32,000 bases of DNA from Psychrobacter sp. HD31 (GTDB lineage Bacteria > Pseudomonadota > Gammaproteobacteria > Pseudomonadales > Moraxellaceae). Positions 3,597 through 17,596 of this stretch are shown piece by piece. Location of the stretch: positions 1,410,001 through 1,442,000 of the forward strand of contig NZ_CP142525.1 in assembly GCF_051097895.1 (NCBI RefSeq). The letters are read 5' to 3'. Numbering within the stretch: position 1 is the stretch's first letter; the number at the start of each line of letters is the position of its first letter. Below the pieces are notes generated by a model that made no database searches, was not told the DNA's origin, and was given only the letters and a program-made list of their open reading frames with translations. Made by a program: the position numbers and the translations under genes.

Positions 3597-4808
3597 GTGA
3601 TTATGAGTTTATCAACACAAGATTTAAAAAACATTACGGTCATTGGCGCAGGTTATGTTGGTTTATCAAATGCCATTTTATTAGCACAAGAGCATCTAGA
3701 CACCAAAGTTACGCTATTTGATATCAATAGCGATCGCATCGCTCAGTTACAACAACAAAAATCACCATTACAAGATAAAGAGATTATTGATTTTTTAAGC
3801 AACCAGCCTCTTAATTTTTTTGCAACAGATGATGCGTCTCACATATACAAAGACGCAGATGTCGCAATTATTGCAACGCCAACCAATTATGACATTGCCA
3901 GCGGAAAGTTTGACACCTCATCAGTTGAGTCCAGTATTAGATCCGTACGCGAACAAAATCCATCGGTACCAATCGTCATTAAATCGACCATCCCTATTGG
4001 CTTTACTAAAAACATCCATCAGCAATTTGATGAAAATATTATATTTATGCCCGAGTTTTTACGAGAAGGGCAAGCATTGTATGATAATTTGCACCCATCT
4101 CGTATTATTGTTGGTGCGACTAACCAACAAACTAATTTTGTAGAAAAATTAATGGCATTATATAAAAAAGCAAGTTTAGAAGAGCACCTTGAATGCTTGC
4201 AAATGCCGCCAACCGAAGCAGAAGCCGTTAAACTATTTGCTAATAGTTACTTGGCTACCCGCATCTCCTTTTTTAACGAGTTAGACAGCTTTGCCGAGTC
4301 AAACCAACTTGATAGTCAATCTATTATCACAGGTATTGGTCTAGACCCTCGCATTGGGCAACATTATAACAACCCATCTTTTGGGTATGGTGGTTATTGC
4401 CTACCTAAAGACACTCAGCAATTAAAAGCAAATTATGAAGGCGTACCATCTAACGTCATTCACGCAGTGGTGGATGCAAATAATACTCGAAAACGTTTTA
4501 TCGCACGGCAAATTATTGATAAAAATCCAAAAAGCGTCGGAATTTATCGTTTAAGTATGAAAAAAGATGCAGATAATTTTAGAGATTCAGCCATTTTAGA
4601 CATTATTAATACCTTAAAACAGCATGGGCTTACCATCACCATTTATGAGCCTGCCATTCAAGACAATGAATTTCAAGGATGTGCCATCATCGCTGATTTA
4701 AATACCTTTAAACAAGCCAATGATTTAATTGTTGCTAACCGCTGGCATGATGAGTTAAATGCCGTGGCTAAAAAAGTTTACACAAGAGATGTATTTGGGT
4801 TTAGTTAA
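3597..4808 (+). CDS. ugd: UDP-glucose 6-dehydrogenase (canonical, motif-complete)
   Basis: The ORF is 403 aa. It has the Rossmann loop VIGAGYVGLS, then PEFLREGQA, the K/N block AVKLFANSYLATRISFFNE and the nucleophile loop GYGGYCLPKD. The track start at 3597 is GTG; ATG at 3603 is the more likely start. Confidence 0.9.
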   Translation: MIMSLSTQDLKNITVIGAGYVGLSNAILLAQEHLDTKVTLFDINSDRIAQLQQQKSPLQDKEIIDFLSNQPLNFFATDDASHIYKDADVAIIATPTNYDIASGKFDTSSVESSIRSVREQNPSVPIVIKSTIPIGFTKNIHQQFDENIIFMPEFLREGQALYDNLHPSRIIVGATNQQTNFVEKLMALYKKASLEEHLECLQMPPTEAEAVKLFANSYLATRISFFNELDSFAESNQLDSQSIITGIGLDPRIGQHYNNPSFGYGGYCLPKDTQQLKANYEGVPSNVIHAVVDANNTRKRFIARQIIDKNPKSVGIYRLSMKKDADNFRDSAILDIINTLKQHGLTITIYEPAIQDNEFQGCAIIADLNTFKQANDLIVANRWHDELNAVAKKVYTRDVFGFS

Positions 4809-6121
4809 CTCTTACGTCCAATACCAATATAGTCGGATGTTAACTGACCAAGCTGGTTGGCAGTAAAAATATTTTGCGTATCGAAAACAGGCACAGCAAC
4901 TTCATTAACTCGTTCTACTTGCGGTGGCTGTTCATAATCCCAGTTTAATACAAAAATTGCTTGTGCCTGTTCAAGCTTATCATAAGGGTTGTTAATCAAC
5001 TCAAGCTTTGGTTGTTCAGGGTACAAGGCTAACAGTTCACCAGTTGCTTTATCGGCACAAACCAGCGTTTTAATATCATATGACCATAACAAACTTAATA
5101 GTGGATGAATTGCCGAGTTTTGCGTTCTTCCTGATCCCGCTTTATAGCTTGCCCCCCACACCATAACCGTTTTTTGTTCAATCAACCCATCAAAGTATTT
5201 CCAAAATTTCCTAAAAATCAGCTCTTTTTGGTCATCATTAATGTTACTCACAGCCTTGATTAGTTTGATATCCGTATTAGATTGCACAAAACTATTGGCA
5301 AGCATGTCTACTTCAGTTGGTAACGTACGACCACCAAACCCCCAACCTGCTTTTAGATAACTTGCACCAATCCTCTCATCAAGACCCATAATATGACTAA
5401 CGGTGGTAATATCCACCTCTTTCGCATCGGCAAGCCTTGATAGCTCGTTCATATAGCTTACTCGAGTGGCAAGCATGCCCATGATACTCCCCCGAGAAAA
5501 TTCAATTGTGGCAATATCCGCCACATACGACTGTTTTGATTGATGCATAAACGGTTGCATCATCGCCAGCCGTTGCCAGCTGTCTTTGGTTTTTTCACCC
5601 AATAACCAAAGTTTGGGGTTCAGCATAGAACTGTAAGCTTGCCCATCTTGTAAAAAAACAAAGGGGACATAATAAATCCATGGGCGATGAATTTTTTTAC
5701 TCATCTCATCAAAATAACCAATCTGGTTTTTACCTGACAAGATATATGCTGTTTTTTGATTTTGACTCGTATTCACAACATGAATAAATGTCTCTTCAAG
5801 GCTATTTATCTTTTCATTTTTTAGCGGATTAAACCAGTCATCATTAAAAAGCCATACAGCTTCCACATTATCTGACACATCATTTAACACACTATCAAAA
5901 TCAACGAATGATGAGGTTACAATCAAGTCTTTTTGCAAGTACAACTGCCATAGTGCCAATACATGATGCTCAAATTCATACTTCATCAATGTATCATTAA
6001 GATTATCTAATTTCGAAACCACTTGTACTTGATTACCCAAAGACGCCAAAACCACAGCAGAAGTTATGGCATCAATACTATGACCAAGAATAAGACAAGA
6101 CCTATTTTTTTGTAAGTGCAT
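4805..6121 (-). CDS. UDP-glucose/GDP-mannose dehydrogenase-family paralog lacking the NAD-binding and catalytic signatures (probable pseudoenzyme)
   Basis: The ORF is 438 aa and aligns without gaps to the neighbouring Ugd over the central domain (LATRVSYMNEL...MGLDERIG...GFGG). However, GxGxxG is replaced by GHSIDA, and Lys/Asn by Arg/Met. The nucleophile loop CLPKD is replaced by TLPTE. It is the last gene after galU-pgi. Confidence 0.7.
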   Translation of the reverse strand: MHLQKNRSCLILGHSIDAITSAVVLASLGNQVQVVSKLDNLNDTLMKYEFEHHVLALWQLYLQKDLIVTSSFVDFDSVLNDVSDNVEAVWLFNDDWFNPLKNEKINSLEETFIHVVNTSQNQKTAYILSGKNQIGYFDEMSKKIHRPWIYYVPFVFLQDGQAYSSMLNPKLWLLGEKTKDSWQRLAMMQPFMHQSKQSYVADIATIEFSRGSIMGMLATRVSYMNELSRLADAKEVDITTVSHIMGLDERIGASYLKAGWGFGGRTLPTEVDMLANSFVQSNTDIKLIKAVSNINDDQKELIFRKFWKYFDGLIEQKTVMVWGASYKAGSGRTQNSAIHPLLSLLWSYDIKTLVCADKATGELLALYPEQPKLELINNPYDKLEQAQAIFVLNWDYEQPPQVERVNEVAVPVFDTQNIFTANQLGQLTSDYIGIGRKS

Positions 6122-11273: not shown

Positions 11274-12008
11274 TCACCCATACTCTTTTAGAAATAATGT
11301 AGGGTTGTCCGTAATTATCGTATCTACCCCTATATCAATAAGTCTATTGGCTACTTTTAAATTATTTACAGTCCAAGCAGTTACTTGAATTCCATAACGA
11401 TGACATAAACTCACAATCTCCTCTGTAATTAGCGTGTACTTTAAACCGACTGATTTTGCTTGTATTCTTAACAGTGAATTGACAAGATCTGCCTTCTTAA
11501 AGGTAGATAATACTAAAAGACCTCTAGAAAACTCTCTAAAACCTTTATGATTTTTCAAAAGCTCTAGCAACTGAATGTCAAAGCTTGTCAGAACAATAGG
11601 AAGCTTAAACAGTTCTGAATTACAAAAGTTTTGATAAAGGATATTGACCATTTTCCGTTTGTCCATCCTAGGATGCGTCTTTATCTCCAGTTCAATATGG
11701 TTATATCCATATAAATATGGAACAATTTCAGTAAGAGTTAACATTCTATGGCCAGTATTAACGAAAAAAACTTTTTTACAGTAATCAGCGGTTAACTGCT
11801 CTATCATACCTTGTTGTCTGCAAACTCTAGCCAACGTATTGTCATGTGCTAAAACCAGTTGATTATCAGAAGTAATTTGAACATCAAACTCAATCCCGTC
11901 AATACCCTCTTTAATCAGTCTATGGGCTTGAATAAAACCTTCCTTTGAGTTTTCAAGCACTTCTGCTTTAGCACCACGATGTCCTAATATTTTAATTTTA
12001 CAATTCAT
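11274..12008 (-). CDS. glycerophosphodiester phosphodiesterase (GDPD family), no signal peptide
   Basis: The ORF is 244 aa. ILGHRGAKAEVLENSKEGF...GIDGIEFDVQITSDNQLVLAHDNTL matches the GDPD HRG...E.D...HD signature. The C-terminal WTVN...GVDTIITDNP is also typical of the family. Confidence 0.85.
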   Translation of the reverse strand: MNCKIKILGHRGAKAEVLENSKEGFIQAHRLIKEGIDGIEFDVQITSDNQLVLAHDNTLARVCRQQGMIEQLTADYCKKVFFVNTGHRMLTLTEIVPYLYGYNHIELEIKTHPRMDKRKMVNILYQNFCNSELFKLPIVLTSFDIQLLELLKNHKGFREFSRGLLVLSTFKKADLVNSLLRIQAKSVGLKYTLITEEIVSLCHRYGIQVTAWTVNNLKVANRLIDIGVDTIITDNPTLFLKEYG

Positions 12009-12115: not shown

Positions 12116-13582
12116 CTAGAACGAAGGTTCACTGCTCTCTTGAGAGTTGGTAAGATTTTCTAACGCTTGATCTCGTTCGTCGCAAATCATTTCAATTGCA
12201 GCAAGAAAGTTTTTAGTACTTTCTTTATTAATATAGTCAACATCACCTAAAAAATATCGTTTTACTTTATTACGGTTTAACTTTATCGTATCTTCTTCCA
12301 TCTCACGATGAATAATAGTTATTATCTCATTGAAATTATTACTATTAATCATAATAGCACCATTAGTAATAAAGGGTTTGTCATTACGCTCAGTGGTTTT
12401 ATAAAACATATCAGTCATAAGCATTGGCTTATCAGTTGCTAAATAATCAATCGCTACTGCTGAATTGTCAAAAATAGCTAAATCTACATGTTCGTAAAGT
12501 GAATTGATATCACCTCCTATGACAACTTGAGCTTTAAAATGACCTGTTAAGCGTTTAATAATCTGGTCATTTATTTTTTTCGACTGTACTAAGCGACTAC
12601 CCGTATTTGGGTGCGGCTTATAAATCAAATATAAACTAGGATCTGCTAAAATCTCATCAATAATTTGTAGACCATAATCATTTAATGATGTGTAGTTCAT
12701 CGATTCATGCGTTGATTCCCATGTTGGCGCATATAACACAACTTTTCTATCTTCTATTGTAGAGTTCCCAAATAATAATTGATCATCTAAGATAGTTGGA
12801 TCTTTCTTTGCAACATCAGGTTTAGAAATTTTTTCAATATATTCTAATTGTGGTCGTCCAATAGTAATATAGCGATTCATATCTTTATTTAACAGATTAT
12901 TACTATATTTATCATAAGCTGCTGGACCAACTAAAAAAACATAATCATAAGCTTTTGTTTGATTACTGACGGTTGATAATTTATCGCTTTCTCCATGGTT
13001 GATATGAACATGAAATGCATCTCGTGTAATTAATGACTGGAAATTCTTTTGTCCATGATTAACATATAATACACATTTAAATTGACCTTGTTCATATACC
13101 TGCATCACATTATCTATCAAACGACAATAAACAACTTGAAAGTCTGTATTCTTTTTAATCCAGTCAAACGTTTCCTTCTTACGTACAATAAAAATAAAGC
13201 TTTTTACTTTCACTAACTCTTTTAGAGGACCTAACCATTGCTCTATTTGATATAGATTGCCCAATCCCCCATCAAAATATAAAGCGACTTCATCTTTCAA
13301 CTGAATATTATGAAAAATTCTATTTTCAGTGGTGGCTGCTTTCTTTGCCGGAGCCTTTGCAACTGGTTTCTTTGCCGGTGCCTTTGCGGCTGGTTTCTTT
13401 GCCGGTGCCTTTGCGACTGGTTTCTTTGCCGGTGCCTTTACGGCTGGTTTCTTTGCCGGTGCCTTTGCGACTGGTTTTTTCTGAACAACTACATTCTCAG
13501 CTGTTCGTTTGTATATACTGTCGGCAACAGAAATCAAAGGGGTCTTTAAAAATTTAGATACCTTGCTCATATCTTCTCTCAT
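12116..13582 (-). CDS. CDP-glycerol glycerophosphotransferase (TagF/TagB family) with N-terminal KKPxAKAPA polycationic repeat
   Basis: The ORF is 488 aa. The C-terminal two-thirds carry TagF-family blocks (VVLYAPTWES, LIYKPHPN, DLAIFDNSAVAIDYLATDKPMLM). Residues 35-82 are five 9-aa repeats. An alternative start is ATG 13570. Confidence 0.8.
   Translation of the reverse strand: MREDMSKVSKFLKTPLISVADSIYKRTAENVVVQKKPVAKAPAKKPAVKAPAKKPVAKAPAKKPAAKAPAKKPVAKAPAKKAATTENRIFHNIQLKDEVALYFDGGLGNLYQIEQWLGPLKELVKVKSFIFIVRKKETFDWIKKNTDFQVVYCRLIDNVMQVYEQGQFKCVLYVNHGQKNFQSLITRDAFHVHINHGESDKLSTVSNQTKAYDYVFLVGPAAYDKYSNNLLNKDMNRYITIGRPQLEYIEKISKPDVAKKDPTILDDQLLFGNSTIEDRKVVLYAPTWESTHESMNYTSLNDYGLQIIDEILADPSLYLIYKPHPNTGSRLVQSKKINDQIIKRLTGHFKAQVVIGGDINSLYEHVDLAIFDNSAVAIDYLATDKPMLMTDMFYKTTERNDKPFITNGAIMINSNNFNEIITIIHREMEEDTIKLNRNKVKRYFLGDVDYINKESTKNFLAAIEMICDERDQALENLTNSQESSEPSF
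13337..13480 (-). repeat. in-frame 27-bp tandem repeat, 5 full units plus a partial, encoding (KKPxAKAPA)n
   Basis: On the plus strand the unit ctggtttctttgccggtgcctttgcg[a/g] is read head-to-tail, with point differences only at the V/A codons. Confidence 0.95.
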
Positions 13583-13609: not shown

Positions 13610-14965
13610 CTAGGACTCTTTTCTGGAGTTAAATTTAGAAAAAACACTGTTAATACTTAAAATGTCTTGTCTTGTTAATCTATCTGATTCTTTTGATTCT
13701 CGCTGAATAACCGATAGAAACTCACTGAGTTCATATCTTAATCCATCACCATCCAATTCAAAATTATAGGTAAACTCTTCTGATGCATCTTCAAATCGGA
13801 TATGATACCTTCTGGTTAGCCACCATGGAGCAGGCACATAAATGTATCCTTTAGTTCCTGAAATAATCGCGCTACCTTCCGTCTTTGCACCGATGCCTAC
13901 TGTAGACGTAGAAATACCCTGTTCATGTTCTAAGATAATATTAGTATATCCATCTACACCAATCATTTCTCTTTCTATAAACTCAATTCTTGTTGGTGTC
14001 CCTAGTACTCTTTGTGCTAATAACAACGGATAAGTTGCTAATTCATTGACAGCACCACCATAAGGTGACTGCCACTCTCTAAGACTACGGTCTGTTATCA
14101 ACTTAGAGAATGATGCTCGAACTTCTACAACATCACCAATTTTCCCACGTTCAATTTCAGAAAGCAGTTTATTAAAACCAGGGAAAAAGGCTGTTTTAAT
14201 TGCTTCCATCAAAACCAAACCTTTTTCATCAGCTATATCATATAGTTCCTTTAGATGCTCAGCCTTTAGTGTAATTGGCTTCTCACACAATACATGCTTG
14301 CCTGCTAAAAGTGCCTGTTTCGCATACTCAAAATGAGTCTCATGAGGAGTAGCAATATATACTGCATCAATAGGTGTATTAAGCAAATCCTCTATATTAT
14401 CAAAACCATAATGGATTTTATGATCTCGAATAAACTTTTCAACATTCAATAAGTTTCGTGACATTACCCCATATATATCTGCATTATTAAGATGTCTAGA
14501 CTCTTTCACAAATCTACCAGCAATCCTACCAGTCCCAACAACACCAATATTGTATATTTTTAAAGTCTCAGCTCTTAGCATAGTACTAGAAATACCTTTA
14601 GTACGAGGCAAATATACGACTTTAGTATACTCATTCAAATAGTCAAACTTTCCTACCCAATCATCACCAATAGCAAAAATATCAATATCATATTTTTGCA
14701 TATCCGTCGCTTTTTGAAATTTATGATATTCAATAATAACTTCATCAACAAAATCTAATTCTTTTACAGCTGCCGCACGTTCTTCCACTGTCTGTAAAAC
14801 ATTAAGCTTACCACGAGAGCGATCATAGTCTTCATCTGTAACACCAACCACTAAATAATCACCCAACTCTTTTGCTCTACGAAGTAGATTAATATGCCCT
14901 ATATGCAGCATGTCATAAGTACCATAAGTGATAACTTTAGTTATACCTTTATTTTCTATATTCAT
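13610..14965 (-). CDS. fusion protein: TagD-type glycerol-3-phosphate cytidylyltransferase (N) + Gfo/Idh/MocA NAD(P) oxidoreductase (C)
   Basis: The ORF is 451 aa. The first ~130 aa read VITYGTYDMLHIGHINLLRRAKELGDYLVVGVTDEDYD...RTKGISSTMLR (HxGH and RTxGISST cytidylyltransferase motifs). The remainder begins YNIGVVGTGRIAGRFV and includes DAVYIATPHETHFEYAKQALLAGKHVLCEKP (Gfo/Idh/MocA Rossmann plus EKP). An AAGGA Shine-Dalgarno sequence lies 8 nt upstream of the ATG. Confidence 0.85.
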   Translation of the reverse strand: MNIENKGITKVITYGTYDMLHIGHINLLRRAKELGDYLVVGVTDEDYDRSRGKLNVLQTVEERAAAVKELDFVDEVIIEYHKFQKATDMQKYDIDIFAIGDDWVGKFDYLNEYTKVVYLPRTKGISSTMLRAETLKIYNIGVVGTGRIAGRFVKESRHLNNADIYGVMSRNLLNVEKFIRDHKIHYGFDNIEDLLNTPIDAVYIATPHETHFEYAKQALLAGKHVLCEKPITLKAEHLKELYDIADEKGLVLMEAIKTAFFPGFNKLLSEIERGKIGDVVEVRASFSKLITDRSLREWQSPYGGAVNELATYPLLLAQRVLGTPTRIEFIEREMIGVDGYTNIILEHEQGISTSTVGIGAKTEGSAIISGTKGYIYVPAPWWLTRRYHIRFEDASEEFTYNFELDGDGLRYELSEFLSVIQRESKESDRLTRQDILSINSVFSKFNSRKES

Positions 14966-15217: not shown

Positions 15218-16378
15218 TTATAAGTTTGAATTTAGAGTAGTATACTCATACAATTTGAATTCATCTTTGTTAAGAATTACAGAATTAGGAGTATCATACG
15301 CACTATCAAAATTTTTCATTGGTGTTTGCCAATCACCGTAGTTTTCAGTTAAATATAAATCAAAATCAGCAGGAATCAGATAGCTAGCACCTAGAAAATA
15401 ATGTTCTACTAGCTCAAAAGGCTTATTATGCCATTTTTGCTTTACTCCTGCATGCCAATAATCATCAAATTCACGATAAGTAATAAATACATCAACATTT
15501 GTTCCATTTAAATGGCGTAACTTAATCACATCACGAGTTCGGCTCTTGATAATATAAAAATTACCGGATGTTGCAATTTTTTGTATCAATTGCTCATAAG
15601 TATAAGTATCCCATACGCCAACATCTATGTCTTTATCATGCCCCAAGAAGTTATTTTCACGAATACAGCCAAGTAAAGTACCACTAATTAAGAAAAACTC
15701 AACACCTTTTTGGTCTAAAATTGTTTTTAAATCCTGCAAAGCAACATTTGCTTGTTTAGTATCAATATTTTTTACCAACTTAATACCTTTTACTCCCTTC
15801 CATGTCGGACTCTTTACAATCTCTAACGCTTCAATGGTTTGACCACAACGCATATATGCATTAATTTTCGCAGTAATCAAATCGTCATTATCTAATAAGC
15901 TTGTTTGACATTCCACTTCAGCTATATTACGTAAAAATCTTTCACAATCTTTTCCATTCTCTACCAAATTAGACATTAATAACCAAGATTTTTTTCGTGT
16001 TGTAAACTTTACCAAGCTTTCTAATAAACACCATGCTTCATTACAACGATTAATTCTAATTAAAATTTCTGTATATAAAAATACGACTTCCGCAATTTGA
16101 TGATAATCTGGAATTGACAGTACCTCATGTTCAGCTTTACCATAGTCAGCAAATAAAAAATAACTAAGCGCAGTATAGTAATGTCCAAGAAGTAAATTTC
16201 TATTTATTAAAAAATTAGCAATTTCTCGCACCTTAAAATGATTACCTTTGGAAAGGTAATACTCAGCTAAACCTGCAGAAATCAACATAGTTTTTGAGTC
16301 ACTATATTGACTGTCTCTTATGAGTCTTTTTCCAAGCTTCCAGCAATTATAAATACCAGAAGCTTTCACTTTTTTCAT
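15218..16378 (-). CDS. LicD-family phosphotransferase with ~230-aa N-terminal TPR-like helical-repeat region
   Basis: The C-terminal half reads VEFFLISGTLLGCIRENNFLGHDKDIDVGVW...YLTENYGDWQTP (LicD LLGxxR...DxDxD signature). The N-terminal half has repeated TPR-like A/G/Y-spaced helices (AGLAEYYLSKGNHFKVREIANFLI; LGHYYTALSYFLFADYGKAEHEVL). The track ORF extends to a GTG at 16504. I prefer ATG 16378, which has a GAGG 11 nt upstream and avoids the 86-nt overlap. Confidence 0.75.
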   Translation of the reverse strand: MKKVKASGIYNCWKLGKRLIRDSQYSDSKTMLISAGLAEYYLSKGNHFKVREIANFLINRNLLLGHYYTALSYFLFADYGKAEHEVLSIPDYHQIAEVVFLYTEILIRINRCNEAWCLLESLVKFTTRKKSWLLMSNLVENGKDCERFLRNIAEVECQTSLLDNDDLITAKINAYMRCGQTIEALEIVKSPTWKGVKGIKLVKNIDTKQANVALQDLKTILDQKGVEFFLISGTLLGCIRENNFLGHDKDIDVGVWDTYTYEQLIQKIATSGNFYIIKSRTRDVIKLRHLNGTNVDVFITYREFDDYWHAGVKQKWHNKPFELVEHYFLGASYLIPADFDLYLTENYGDWQTPMKNFDSAYDTPNSVILNKDEFKLYEYTTLNSNL

Positions 16379-16418: not shown

Positions 16419-17534
16419 TTATCTATTCCTATTTTTTTCTCTTTTATTAGCAATAATGCGCAACCTTCTTCGTATTTTGTAAAAGTACCACATATGACTA
16501 ACACTACGTTTCCATTTACCTTTTAATACCTCATTGATAGCCAAAATAACTTCGTCAGTCGCTTGATGAGTCGTGAAAAATAGTAAATCATATAGGTCTT
16601 GGGAGCAAACTACACCATGGGCTAAGGCCTTTTGAATCGTATCTTCTAAATCACTAGCATTATTTACTATATAACCTAATTCATCTCGTCTAGCTAACTC
16701 AAGACTCTTCTCACCAATTATATCGCCACAATTTTTTATTTGAGATTCTGGCAACCCCAGTAATAGCAGAGGCTTATAACAATAAATTCCTTCAAAGATC
16801 GCACCACTATAATCAGATAACAATACATCAGTTACTGATAATAATGACAAAAGCTCAGTATCTTCAAAGAAAAAAAATAAATGAGGATATTTCTGTCGAT
16901 ACACTTCTTTATCTTTAGTAAGTAAATCATTATGATGAATTTTAATAAGTATATTATATTCAGAATGTAATCGGCTTAACTCATCGATATAATAATCAAA
17001 ACTAGAGATATCTCCCCAACTCGGGGCATAAAGGATGGTTGGGTTATTTTTATTAATATACCGAGTATATTTCAATTTACTTTCATAATGAAATCTTGAG
17101 TTATACCATCGGTCAAATCTAGGACAGCCAGTAATCTTAGTCGGAGATAGATGAGATATTTTATGTTTTGTATATTCACCATACACTAAATTTAAATTTG
17201 CTAGTGCTCGCCAGTCTCCGTAGTTATGTTTTTCCTTAGCATAACCATATTGTAGCATCATCACTTTTGCTTTTGTAAACTTATAAATTTGTTCAAAGAT
17301 TGTTTGTACAATGATGATTCTTGCAAAATCTTGAATCGTCTCATGAACTTCCAAATAGTCTACTAAAATTACTGGATTTGAAATTTCATGTAAATAATCT
17401 TTTAAAACAAAATCACTTCCTGATCTTTTTACTTCCACTAAAGTTGCATTAGGTAGTCGTTGTAAAAGTGGTTTGAAATGCAAATACTGGAACATATTCC
17501 AAACTAAAAAGACTGTAGTTTTGTGGTTTGCCAT
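16419..17534 (-). CDS. CDP-glycerol glycerophosphotransferase (TagB/TagF family), short form
   Basis: The ORF is 371 aa. PTILYAPSWGD, LIKIHHN and DVLLSDYSGAIFEGIYCYKPLLLL correspond to the TagF-family blocks also seen in the 488-aa paralog. It has a basic C-terminal tail. Confidence 0.75.
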   Translation of the reverse strand: MANHKTTVFLVWNMFQYLHFKPLLQRLPNATLVEVKRSGSDFVLKDYLHEISNPVILVDYLEVHETIQDFARIIIVQTIFEQIYKFTKAKVMMLQYGYAKEKHNYGDWRALANLNLVYGEYTKHKISHLSPTKITGCPRFDRWYNSRFHYESKLKYTRYINKNNPTILYAPSWGDISSFDYYIDELSRLHSEYNILIKIHHNDLLTKDKEVYRQKYPHLFFFFEDTELLSLLSVTDVLLSDYSGAIFEGIYCYKPLLLLGLPESQIKNCGDIIGEKSLELARRDELGYIVNNASDLEDTIQKALAHGVVCSQDLYDLLFFTTHQATDEVILAINEVLKGKWKRSVSHMWYFYKIRRRLRIIANKREKNRNR

Positions 17535-17552: not shown

Positions 17553-17580
17553 AAAAAAACCCCTCCATTATAGAGGGGCT
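17553..17580 (-). terminator. rho-independent terminator of the suc operon (after sucD)
   Basis: The minus-strand RNA reads CCCCUC-uauaaug-GAGGGG followed by UUUUUUU. It lies 59 nt after the sucD stop. Confidence 0.8.
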
Positions 17581-17596
17581 CCAGTATTACTTTCAA
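17567..17596 (-). promoter_or_regulatory. candidate sigma70 promoter for the island, overlapping the sucD terminator
   Basis: On the minus strand, TTGAAA (17596-17591) is followed by an 18-nt spacer and TATAAT (17572-17567). The -10 hexamer is the terminator loop. The first island gene starts at 17534. Confidence 0.3.

Follow-up and report, generated by a model that had tools for sequence, protein, structure and literature searches.

The window, a 32,000-nucleotide stretch of the Psychrobacter sp. HD31 genome, contains an island of five co-directional genes with a GC content of 31–35%, lying between sucD (42% GC) on one side and glmS-galU-pgi (about 40%) on the other. In gene order the island encodes a TagF-like protein, a LicD-family protein, a two-domain fusion, a second TagF-like protein and a glycerophosphodiester phosphodiesterase (GDPD):

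17556–17582, minus strand: hairpin resembling a terminator, located behind sucD on the upstream edge of the low-GC island (by consensus match only)
16419–17534, minus strand: TagF/TagB-like CDP-polyol phosphotransferase (PF04464), first gene of the island (Pfam)
15218–16378, minus strand: LicD-family phosphotransferase, helical in its N-terminal part (likely ATG start at 16378; longest frame from 16504)
13610–14965, minus strand: TagD-type cytidylyltransferase::Gfo/Idh/MocA fusion gene, 451 aa (ORF, Pfam, PDB matches, AF2 model, contig check)
14567–14944, minus strand: cytidylyltransferase (CT) domain of the fusion, residues 8–133, with H21/H24 (HxGH), R51/K53, E79, K85, D102-W103 and RTKGISST
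14198–14557, minus strand: N-terminal Rossmann domain of the Gfo half, residues 137–256, with GTGRIA, S169-R170, H208/H211 and E228-K229-P230
13613–14197, minus strand: C-terminal domain of the Gfo half, residues 257–451, with K257, E308xxxY312, PWW 380–382 and K361 + E392
12116–13582, minus strand: second TagF-like transferase (PF04464), with N-terminal Lys/Ala/Pro repeats (Pfam)
11274–12008, minus strand: GDPD (Pfam)

The same gene order is found in L174 (79% identity), and in a Psychrobacter MAG (L173) the site after sucD likewise holds the fusion, together with two TagF genes and a PF05159 gene; sucD of this MAG and that of the window are 92% identical, which makes Psychrobacter the probable host of the window. 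The window genome has two copies of GDPD, against one in each of the 39 of 40 congeners with a match. KpsC/KpsS-family genes are present elsewhere in the genome, which suggests a group-2-type capsule as the product of the island. A separate, plain TagD is encoded with a LicD in another glycan locus of the same genome (G000:C1:676070-682138; L198 6070-12138), which comprises an NDP-sugar epimerase, LicD, the stand-alone TagD, Caps_synth, GT25, GT4 and a TupA-like ATP-grasp gene. At its N-terminus (window 13330–13500) the second TagF-like protein has about seven Lys/Ala/Pro repeats of AKKP type, which weakly match histone H1 and may form a polyanion-binding or disordered tail. The window also holds a convergent pair of UDP-glucose dehydrogenase-like genes, at 3597–4808 (plus strand) and 4805–6121 (minus strand); the minus-strand gene has no Pfam match to the NAD-binding domain and is 83% conserved in L174.

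The original prediction described the fusion as a single uninterrupted 451-aa reading frame, and this is confirmed, together with the placing of its motifs and with the addition of the strand (minus), which had been omitted: TYDMLHIGH lies at residues 16–24, RTKGISST at 121–128, IGVVGTGRIAGRF at 140–152 and HVLCEKP at 224–230, and the K229 codon occupies 14279–14281. The break that it had raised as a possible flaw, a stop or frameshift between the halves, is absent. A contig from the public run X1, the reads of which may not be independent of the assembly, runs through 14208–14802 and over the domain junction, showing neither differences nor gaps, no indels are listed across four sequencing runs, and both halves lie in one frame in 80 of 80 genome loci and 80 of 80 metagenome loci. 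An assembly artefact is ruled out by the junction-spanning contig and these 160 related loci.

Pfam places PF01467 at residues 12–132 (E 4e-18; 66.4 bits against a cut-off of 21), PF01408 at 139–254 (E 8e-28) and PF22725 at 269–375, and the HxGH and RTxGISxT motifs are near-invariant across 120 homologues. In sequence searches of the PDB the CT half best matches B. subtilis TagD (1coz, E 1e-34), and the Gfo half 3e9m, 3evn and DHDH 2o48. An AF2 model (pLDDT 92.9, pTM 0.88) has a complete Rossmann fold in the Gfo half; with GxGxxA and a C-terminal sheet domain, this half has the Gfo/Idh/MocA fold, and the top Foldseek matches are DHDH, 3e9m and related Gfo proteins (TM by target 0.83–0.89). The high pTM suggests that the two halves are packed in a fixed arrangement. 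The fusion is a member of both the PF01467 and the Gfo/Idh/MocA superfamilies.

The CT half is like TagD/TarD (B. subtilis 1coz, S. aureus 2b7l; A. pleuropneumoniae Cps3B/Cps7B) in its PF01467 fold, its HxGH and RTxGISxT motifs, its retention of TagD K46, E71, K77 and W95 and its association with TagF-like polymerases. It is unlike them in the added 315-aa Gfo domain, in the replacement of TagD K44 by Arg (R51/K53 align with TagD K44/K46), in the absence of equivalents of TagD W74 and Y49 across the fusion family, and in the family's altered RYVDEVI, the TagD dimer motif (PMC8262930). Against TIGR01518, the TagD equivalog, the fusion scores 124.2 bits with a cut-off of 165.4, and the genome's stand-alone TagD is also short at 136. 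We take W74 and Y49 to be pocket residues; stand-alone TagDs of the genus Psychrobacter mostly keep W74. The core CT residues (D48, R51-G-K53, R63, E79, Q84-K85 and D102-W103) are identical across the classes of partner gene considered below, which would fit one shared or similar-sized substrate. Comparison of the CT pocket by partner class gave no difference, and the pocket therefore could not name the substrate.

The catalytic triad of the Gfo family consists of K (from EKP), D and H/Y (PMC7535918, PMC5969746). In the window protein K229, E308 and Y312 align with EKP and DLGIY of DHDH, accompanied by GTGRIA and H208/H211, and the catalytic motif (K of EKP, D-x-x-x-H/Y; definition from PMC7535918) is present with Glu308 in place of the canonical Asp. 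Across 79 lysine-intact loci E308 is conserved in 100% and Y312 in 92%. From these residues, the window Gfo half looks catalytically intact, with its NAD(P) site kept. It is under purifying selection (dN/dS 0.094 against L174 and 0.135 against L173, with dS near saturation), which is not proof of catalysis because 36 of 55 full-length representatives at 50% identity retain the Gfo domain and have lost the lysine. In relatives without the lysine EKP is replaced by EIP, ETP, ENP, ESP or EPP. Many fused members thus have a degenerate Gfo half, and fusion alone does not imply redox catalysis. Lysine-intact members keep the catalytic set together: the NAD-site set is conserved at 85% in them vs 45% in lysine-lost members, and the catalytic set at 81% vs 35%. 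The CT core of lysine-lost representatives is still 94–100% conserved. The S169-R170 pair after strand 2 resembles NADP-type relatives; most intact members read N-P there, so the cofactor (NADPH or NADH) is uncertain.

The fusion had been described as unusual, which holds within the host genus, where 1 of 150 other genomes searched carries it, and fails across phyla. A first search returned at least 120 full-length relatives with 52–79% identity, and the 160 loci with the fusion come from about nine phyla, with hosts in Pseudomonadota, Campylobacterota, Bacteroidota, Bacillota, Actinomycetota, Verrucomicrobiota, Fibrobacterota and Melainabacteria, among others. A rare curiosity is ruled out, relatives making up at least 595 of 600 and at least 588 of 596 among the pattern matches listed, single-domain relatives included. 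The proposed role of the fusion in supplying a CDP-alcohol to TagF and LicD agrees with its surroundings, with LicD or TagF within 8 kb in 65 of 81 genome loci; NDP-epimerase-type genes occur near it in 16 of the 81 and IspD in 12. In Cocleimonas (L176) the fusion stands with LicD alone, as a module heading a Wzc/flippase locus. Members of this Gfo subfamily also occur joined to GDPD, LicD or metallophosphoesterase domains, and the GDPD and LicD fusions would tie it to phospho-polyol chemistry. A literature search for the domain pair, with most subscription journals outside its scope, found nothing relevant, and the architecture is apparently unstudied.

State of the catalytic lysine and gene neighbourhood go together. 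A short-chain dehydrogenase (SDR) or class V aminotransferase lies nearby, usually adjacent, in 27 of 27 lysine-lost vs 4 of 54 intact genome loci, and in 35 of 36 lysine-lost vs 0 of 17 intact metagenome loci with at least 1.5 kb of flank; these counts are biased in that the SDR and aminotransferase profiles were built from the same neighbourhoods, and other redox partners of intact fusions could be missed. The sole exception among lysine-lost metagenome loci, L156, carries a HisC-like aminotransferase as well as another Gfo that is intact, and five of six further divergent lysine-lost members fit the pattern, the sixth having too little flank. The distribution of GDPD is reversed (21 of 54 intact vs 0 of 27 lysine-lost genome loci). 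Fisher p-values (1e-17 and 5e-13) were set aside as evidence because kin share states. On a 154-row tree, which has long branches and some unsure placements and omits short-flank rows lacking a partner, the lysine state shows five or more changes, and independent pairs agree in 4.4 of 5 cases with none opposite (sign test p 0.06–0.25). One lysine-lost clade (ENP, with an aminotransferase) is nested within the marine intact clade that holds the window protein. The lysine/partner pattern, resting on about five independent losses, is suggestive. SDRs reduce carbonyls and aminotransferases aminate them; both act on carbonyls, and an intact Gfo half is therefore most simply read as doing the same job on a shared carbonyl compound. 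PDB searches with two SDR partners gave no match at strict thresholds, and the queries used recovered no close orthologues of the two SDR partner types in the window genome.

From the domains, residues, selection and neighbourhood described above we infer a redox activity, its direction, cofactor and substrate, the order of steps and the polymer as follows. We see about an even chance that the fusion is a bifunctional CDP-polyol synthase supplying the two TagF-like enzymes and LicD by reduction of a small keto-phosphate, most likely dihydroxyacetone phosphate (DHAP) or the corresponding CDP compound. The CT half would use CTP to attach CMP to the phosphate of a small alcohol or ketose, and the Gfo half, probably with NADPH, would reduce the carbonyl of that compound before or after activation. 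The likeliest substrate would be C3 (DHAP or CDP-dihydroxyacetone), preferred because it fits the TagD-like pocket, the GDPD link and the kinase-free module, with a C4–C5 alditol as second choice. The product would then be CDP-glycerol with its stereochemistry set by the fusion enzyme and not by the cell's sn-glycerol-3-phosphate pool, from which the two TagF-like enzymes and LicD may build or decorate a group-2-type capsule resembling teichoic acid. Precedents exist for either order of steps: activation before reduction in C. jejuni HS5.18/HS5.17 and pneumococcal Mnp1/Mnp2, and reduction before activation in CDP-ribitol synthesis (PMC10918830). The original prediction of a reductase half stands in so far as the residues look intact and keto-phosphate reduction is the most economical chemistry, and is weakened in that the fusion by itself is no proof of redox; its suggestion that the donor might be other than plain CDP-glycerol may hold, the lysine/partner pattern adding evidence, with plain CDP-glycerol as the main rival.

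That rival takes the CT half for an ordinary glycerol-3-phosphate cytidylyltransferase making CDP-sn-glycerol-3-phosphate, and the Gfo half for mainly a dimer scaffold, a cofactor sensor or the seat of an unrelated side reaction. We consider it possible rather than probable. TagD is the best match of the CT half, which keeps TagD K46, E71, K77 and W95 with Arg for K44, the product would need no reductase, and the GDPD neighbours of 21 of 54 intact loci could simply supply glycerol 3-phosphate (G3P). Persistence of the fusion with a degenerate Gfo half in many lineages points the same way, as do a predicted homodimer through the Gfo sheet and the altered RYVDEVI. The dimer scored 0.75 against 0.00 for the best control, passing a mark that 20 of 30 solved pairs and 1 of 23 single chains reach, with at least 78% contact agreement between runs and pLDDT of at least 87; this pass may be remembered from the known DHDH dimer. 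K361 and E392, retained even in degenerate members, lie in the predicted interface, which offers a possible reason why degenerate Gfo halves persist; the predicted dimer would back this rival as much as the CDP-polyol synthase. What a scaffold leaves unexplained is the joint retention of NAD-site and catalytic residues in lysine-intact members and the gain of an SDR or aminotransferase that accompanies lysine loss. The CT score below the TIGR01518 cut-off also counts against it, though the genome's stand-alone TagD falls below as well.

An unlikely variant reverses the chemistry: the CT half would make CDP-sn-glycerol-3-phosphate or another CDP-alditol, and the Gfo half would oxidise it or invert C2 by transient redox. 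The closest characterised Gfo relatives include dehydrogenases (DHDH/D-xylose dehydrogenase), transient-redox Gfo enzymes exist (RgNanOx, PMC7535918), and a feed from GDPD through G3P to the CT half fits such an order. Against it, the aminotransferase loci, which would need oxidation, are those without the lysine. The S-R pair after strand 2 also matches NADP-type relatives, and NADP use usually means reduction. We regard as very improbable a phosphonate route, in which the fusion would reduce phosphonoacetaldehyde and activate hydroxyethylphosphonate as the CT domain of Fom1 does. A weak likeness of the CT half to 5x3d (E 2e-9) and a resemblance of the partner aminotransferases to AepZ/PhnW, below cut-off, would favour it; it is largely refuted by the lack of a PEP mutase over the TIGR02320 cut-off in the 99.99% complete genome (115 vs 319.55 bits), and none is found among the annotated neighbour clusters.

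The CDP-polyol synthase reading has parallels in known systems. Bcs1/Acs1 of H. influenzae and TarI/TarJ of S. aureus likewise use a reductase and a cytidylyltransferase to supply a CDP-polyol to a surface polymer, Bcs1 as one polypeptide like the fusion. Their cytidylyltransferase is IspD-type (PF01128), whereas the fusion has no PF01128 match and a PF01467 CT half; the TarJ and Bcs1 reductases are of SDR/epimerase-type or MDR-type classes, unlike the PF01408/PF22725 reductase half. In C. jejuni HS5.18/HS5.17 (CDP-glucitol) and S. pneumoniae Mnp1/Mnp2 (CDP-mannitol) the CDP-ketose is formed first and then reduced with NADPH, by PF01128 and PF01370 enzymes that, unlike the fusion, are two separate proteins with a C6 substrate (PMC10918830). 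Such a CDP-ketose-first order would be the best account of how a single CT pocket can go with a Gfo, SDR or aminotransferase partner interchangeably. By analogy the fusion would work like these pairs without belonging to them, because they use IspD-type transferases and other reductase classes. DHDH 2o48, the 3-ketoreductase KijD10 and 3e9m/3evn share with the Gfo half the fold, EKP, the second-motif Tyr and dimerisation through the C-terminal sheet, and differ in being stand-alone, at 23–28% identity, with Asp for Glu308 and free or TDP-linked sugars as substrates. Channelling between the halves, which had been suggested, is unsupported, and the closest precedent is against it: by the title of Zolli et al., 2001 (cited in PMC10918830), the H. 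influenzae CDP-ribitol synthase does not channel.

New here are an intact, partner-free member of the family and the lysine/partner pattern. Hundreds of surface-glycan loci carry the gene under one-domain labels, 'Gfo oxidoreductase' or 'glycerol-3-phosphate cytidylyltransferase', and the polyol-phosphate linkers of those loci are therefore not predictable from sequence. If active, the fusion would be one more case in which a reductase and a cytidylyltransferase were paired independently, and the state of one lysine plus a neighbouring gene would predict polyol or amino-alcohol phosphate in the glycan. The window copy is a good member to assay because its catalytic residues are kept and it has no partner enzyme. 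A bolder and improbable extension is that the Gfo half is a new class of DHAP/CDP-dihydroxyacetone reductase yielding the sn-glycerol-1-phosphate enantiomer, so that the fusion makes CDP-1-glycerol, a donor regarded as likely absent from bacteria (PMC8262930). If so, capsule, O-antigen and flagellar glycan loci across many phyla would have this donor, and the SDR and aminotransferase swaps would re-route the same carbonyl intermediate.

No known glycan structure could be linked to a fusion carrier, the E. coli-labelled record L182 having none, and the Proteus and Morganella serotyping papers make no mention of the fusion. Among complete genomes labelled E. coli, L182 (NZ_CM143912.1, 8751–26301 of the locus) is the only one found to carry the fusion, within a cluster that resembles an O-antigen locus and has wzc-galE at its end; the arrangement looks Morganellaceae-like to us, and the record may be mislabelled. 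In two Akkermansia genomes (L043, 1990–9341, and L034) genes for a fucose permease, an isomerase and an FGGY kinase are immediately followed by LicD and an intact fusion, a possible hint at a ketose-1-phosphate substrate, or chance. Seven Lachnospiraceae loci (L041, L045, L053, L068, L070, L143 and L144) encode an additional lysine-intact member of this Gfo subfamily, either by itself or as a fusion with GDPD/LicD, which suggests two redox steps there. Close to the fusion in 19 of 81 loci (L076, 5420–7948, and 18 other Bacillota) is an 850-aa protein without a Pfam or NCBIfam match; it is nearly always encoded directly upstream of the fusion, and some of these loci lie near flagellin-like genes.
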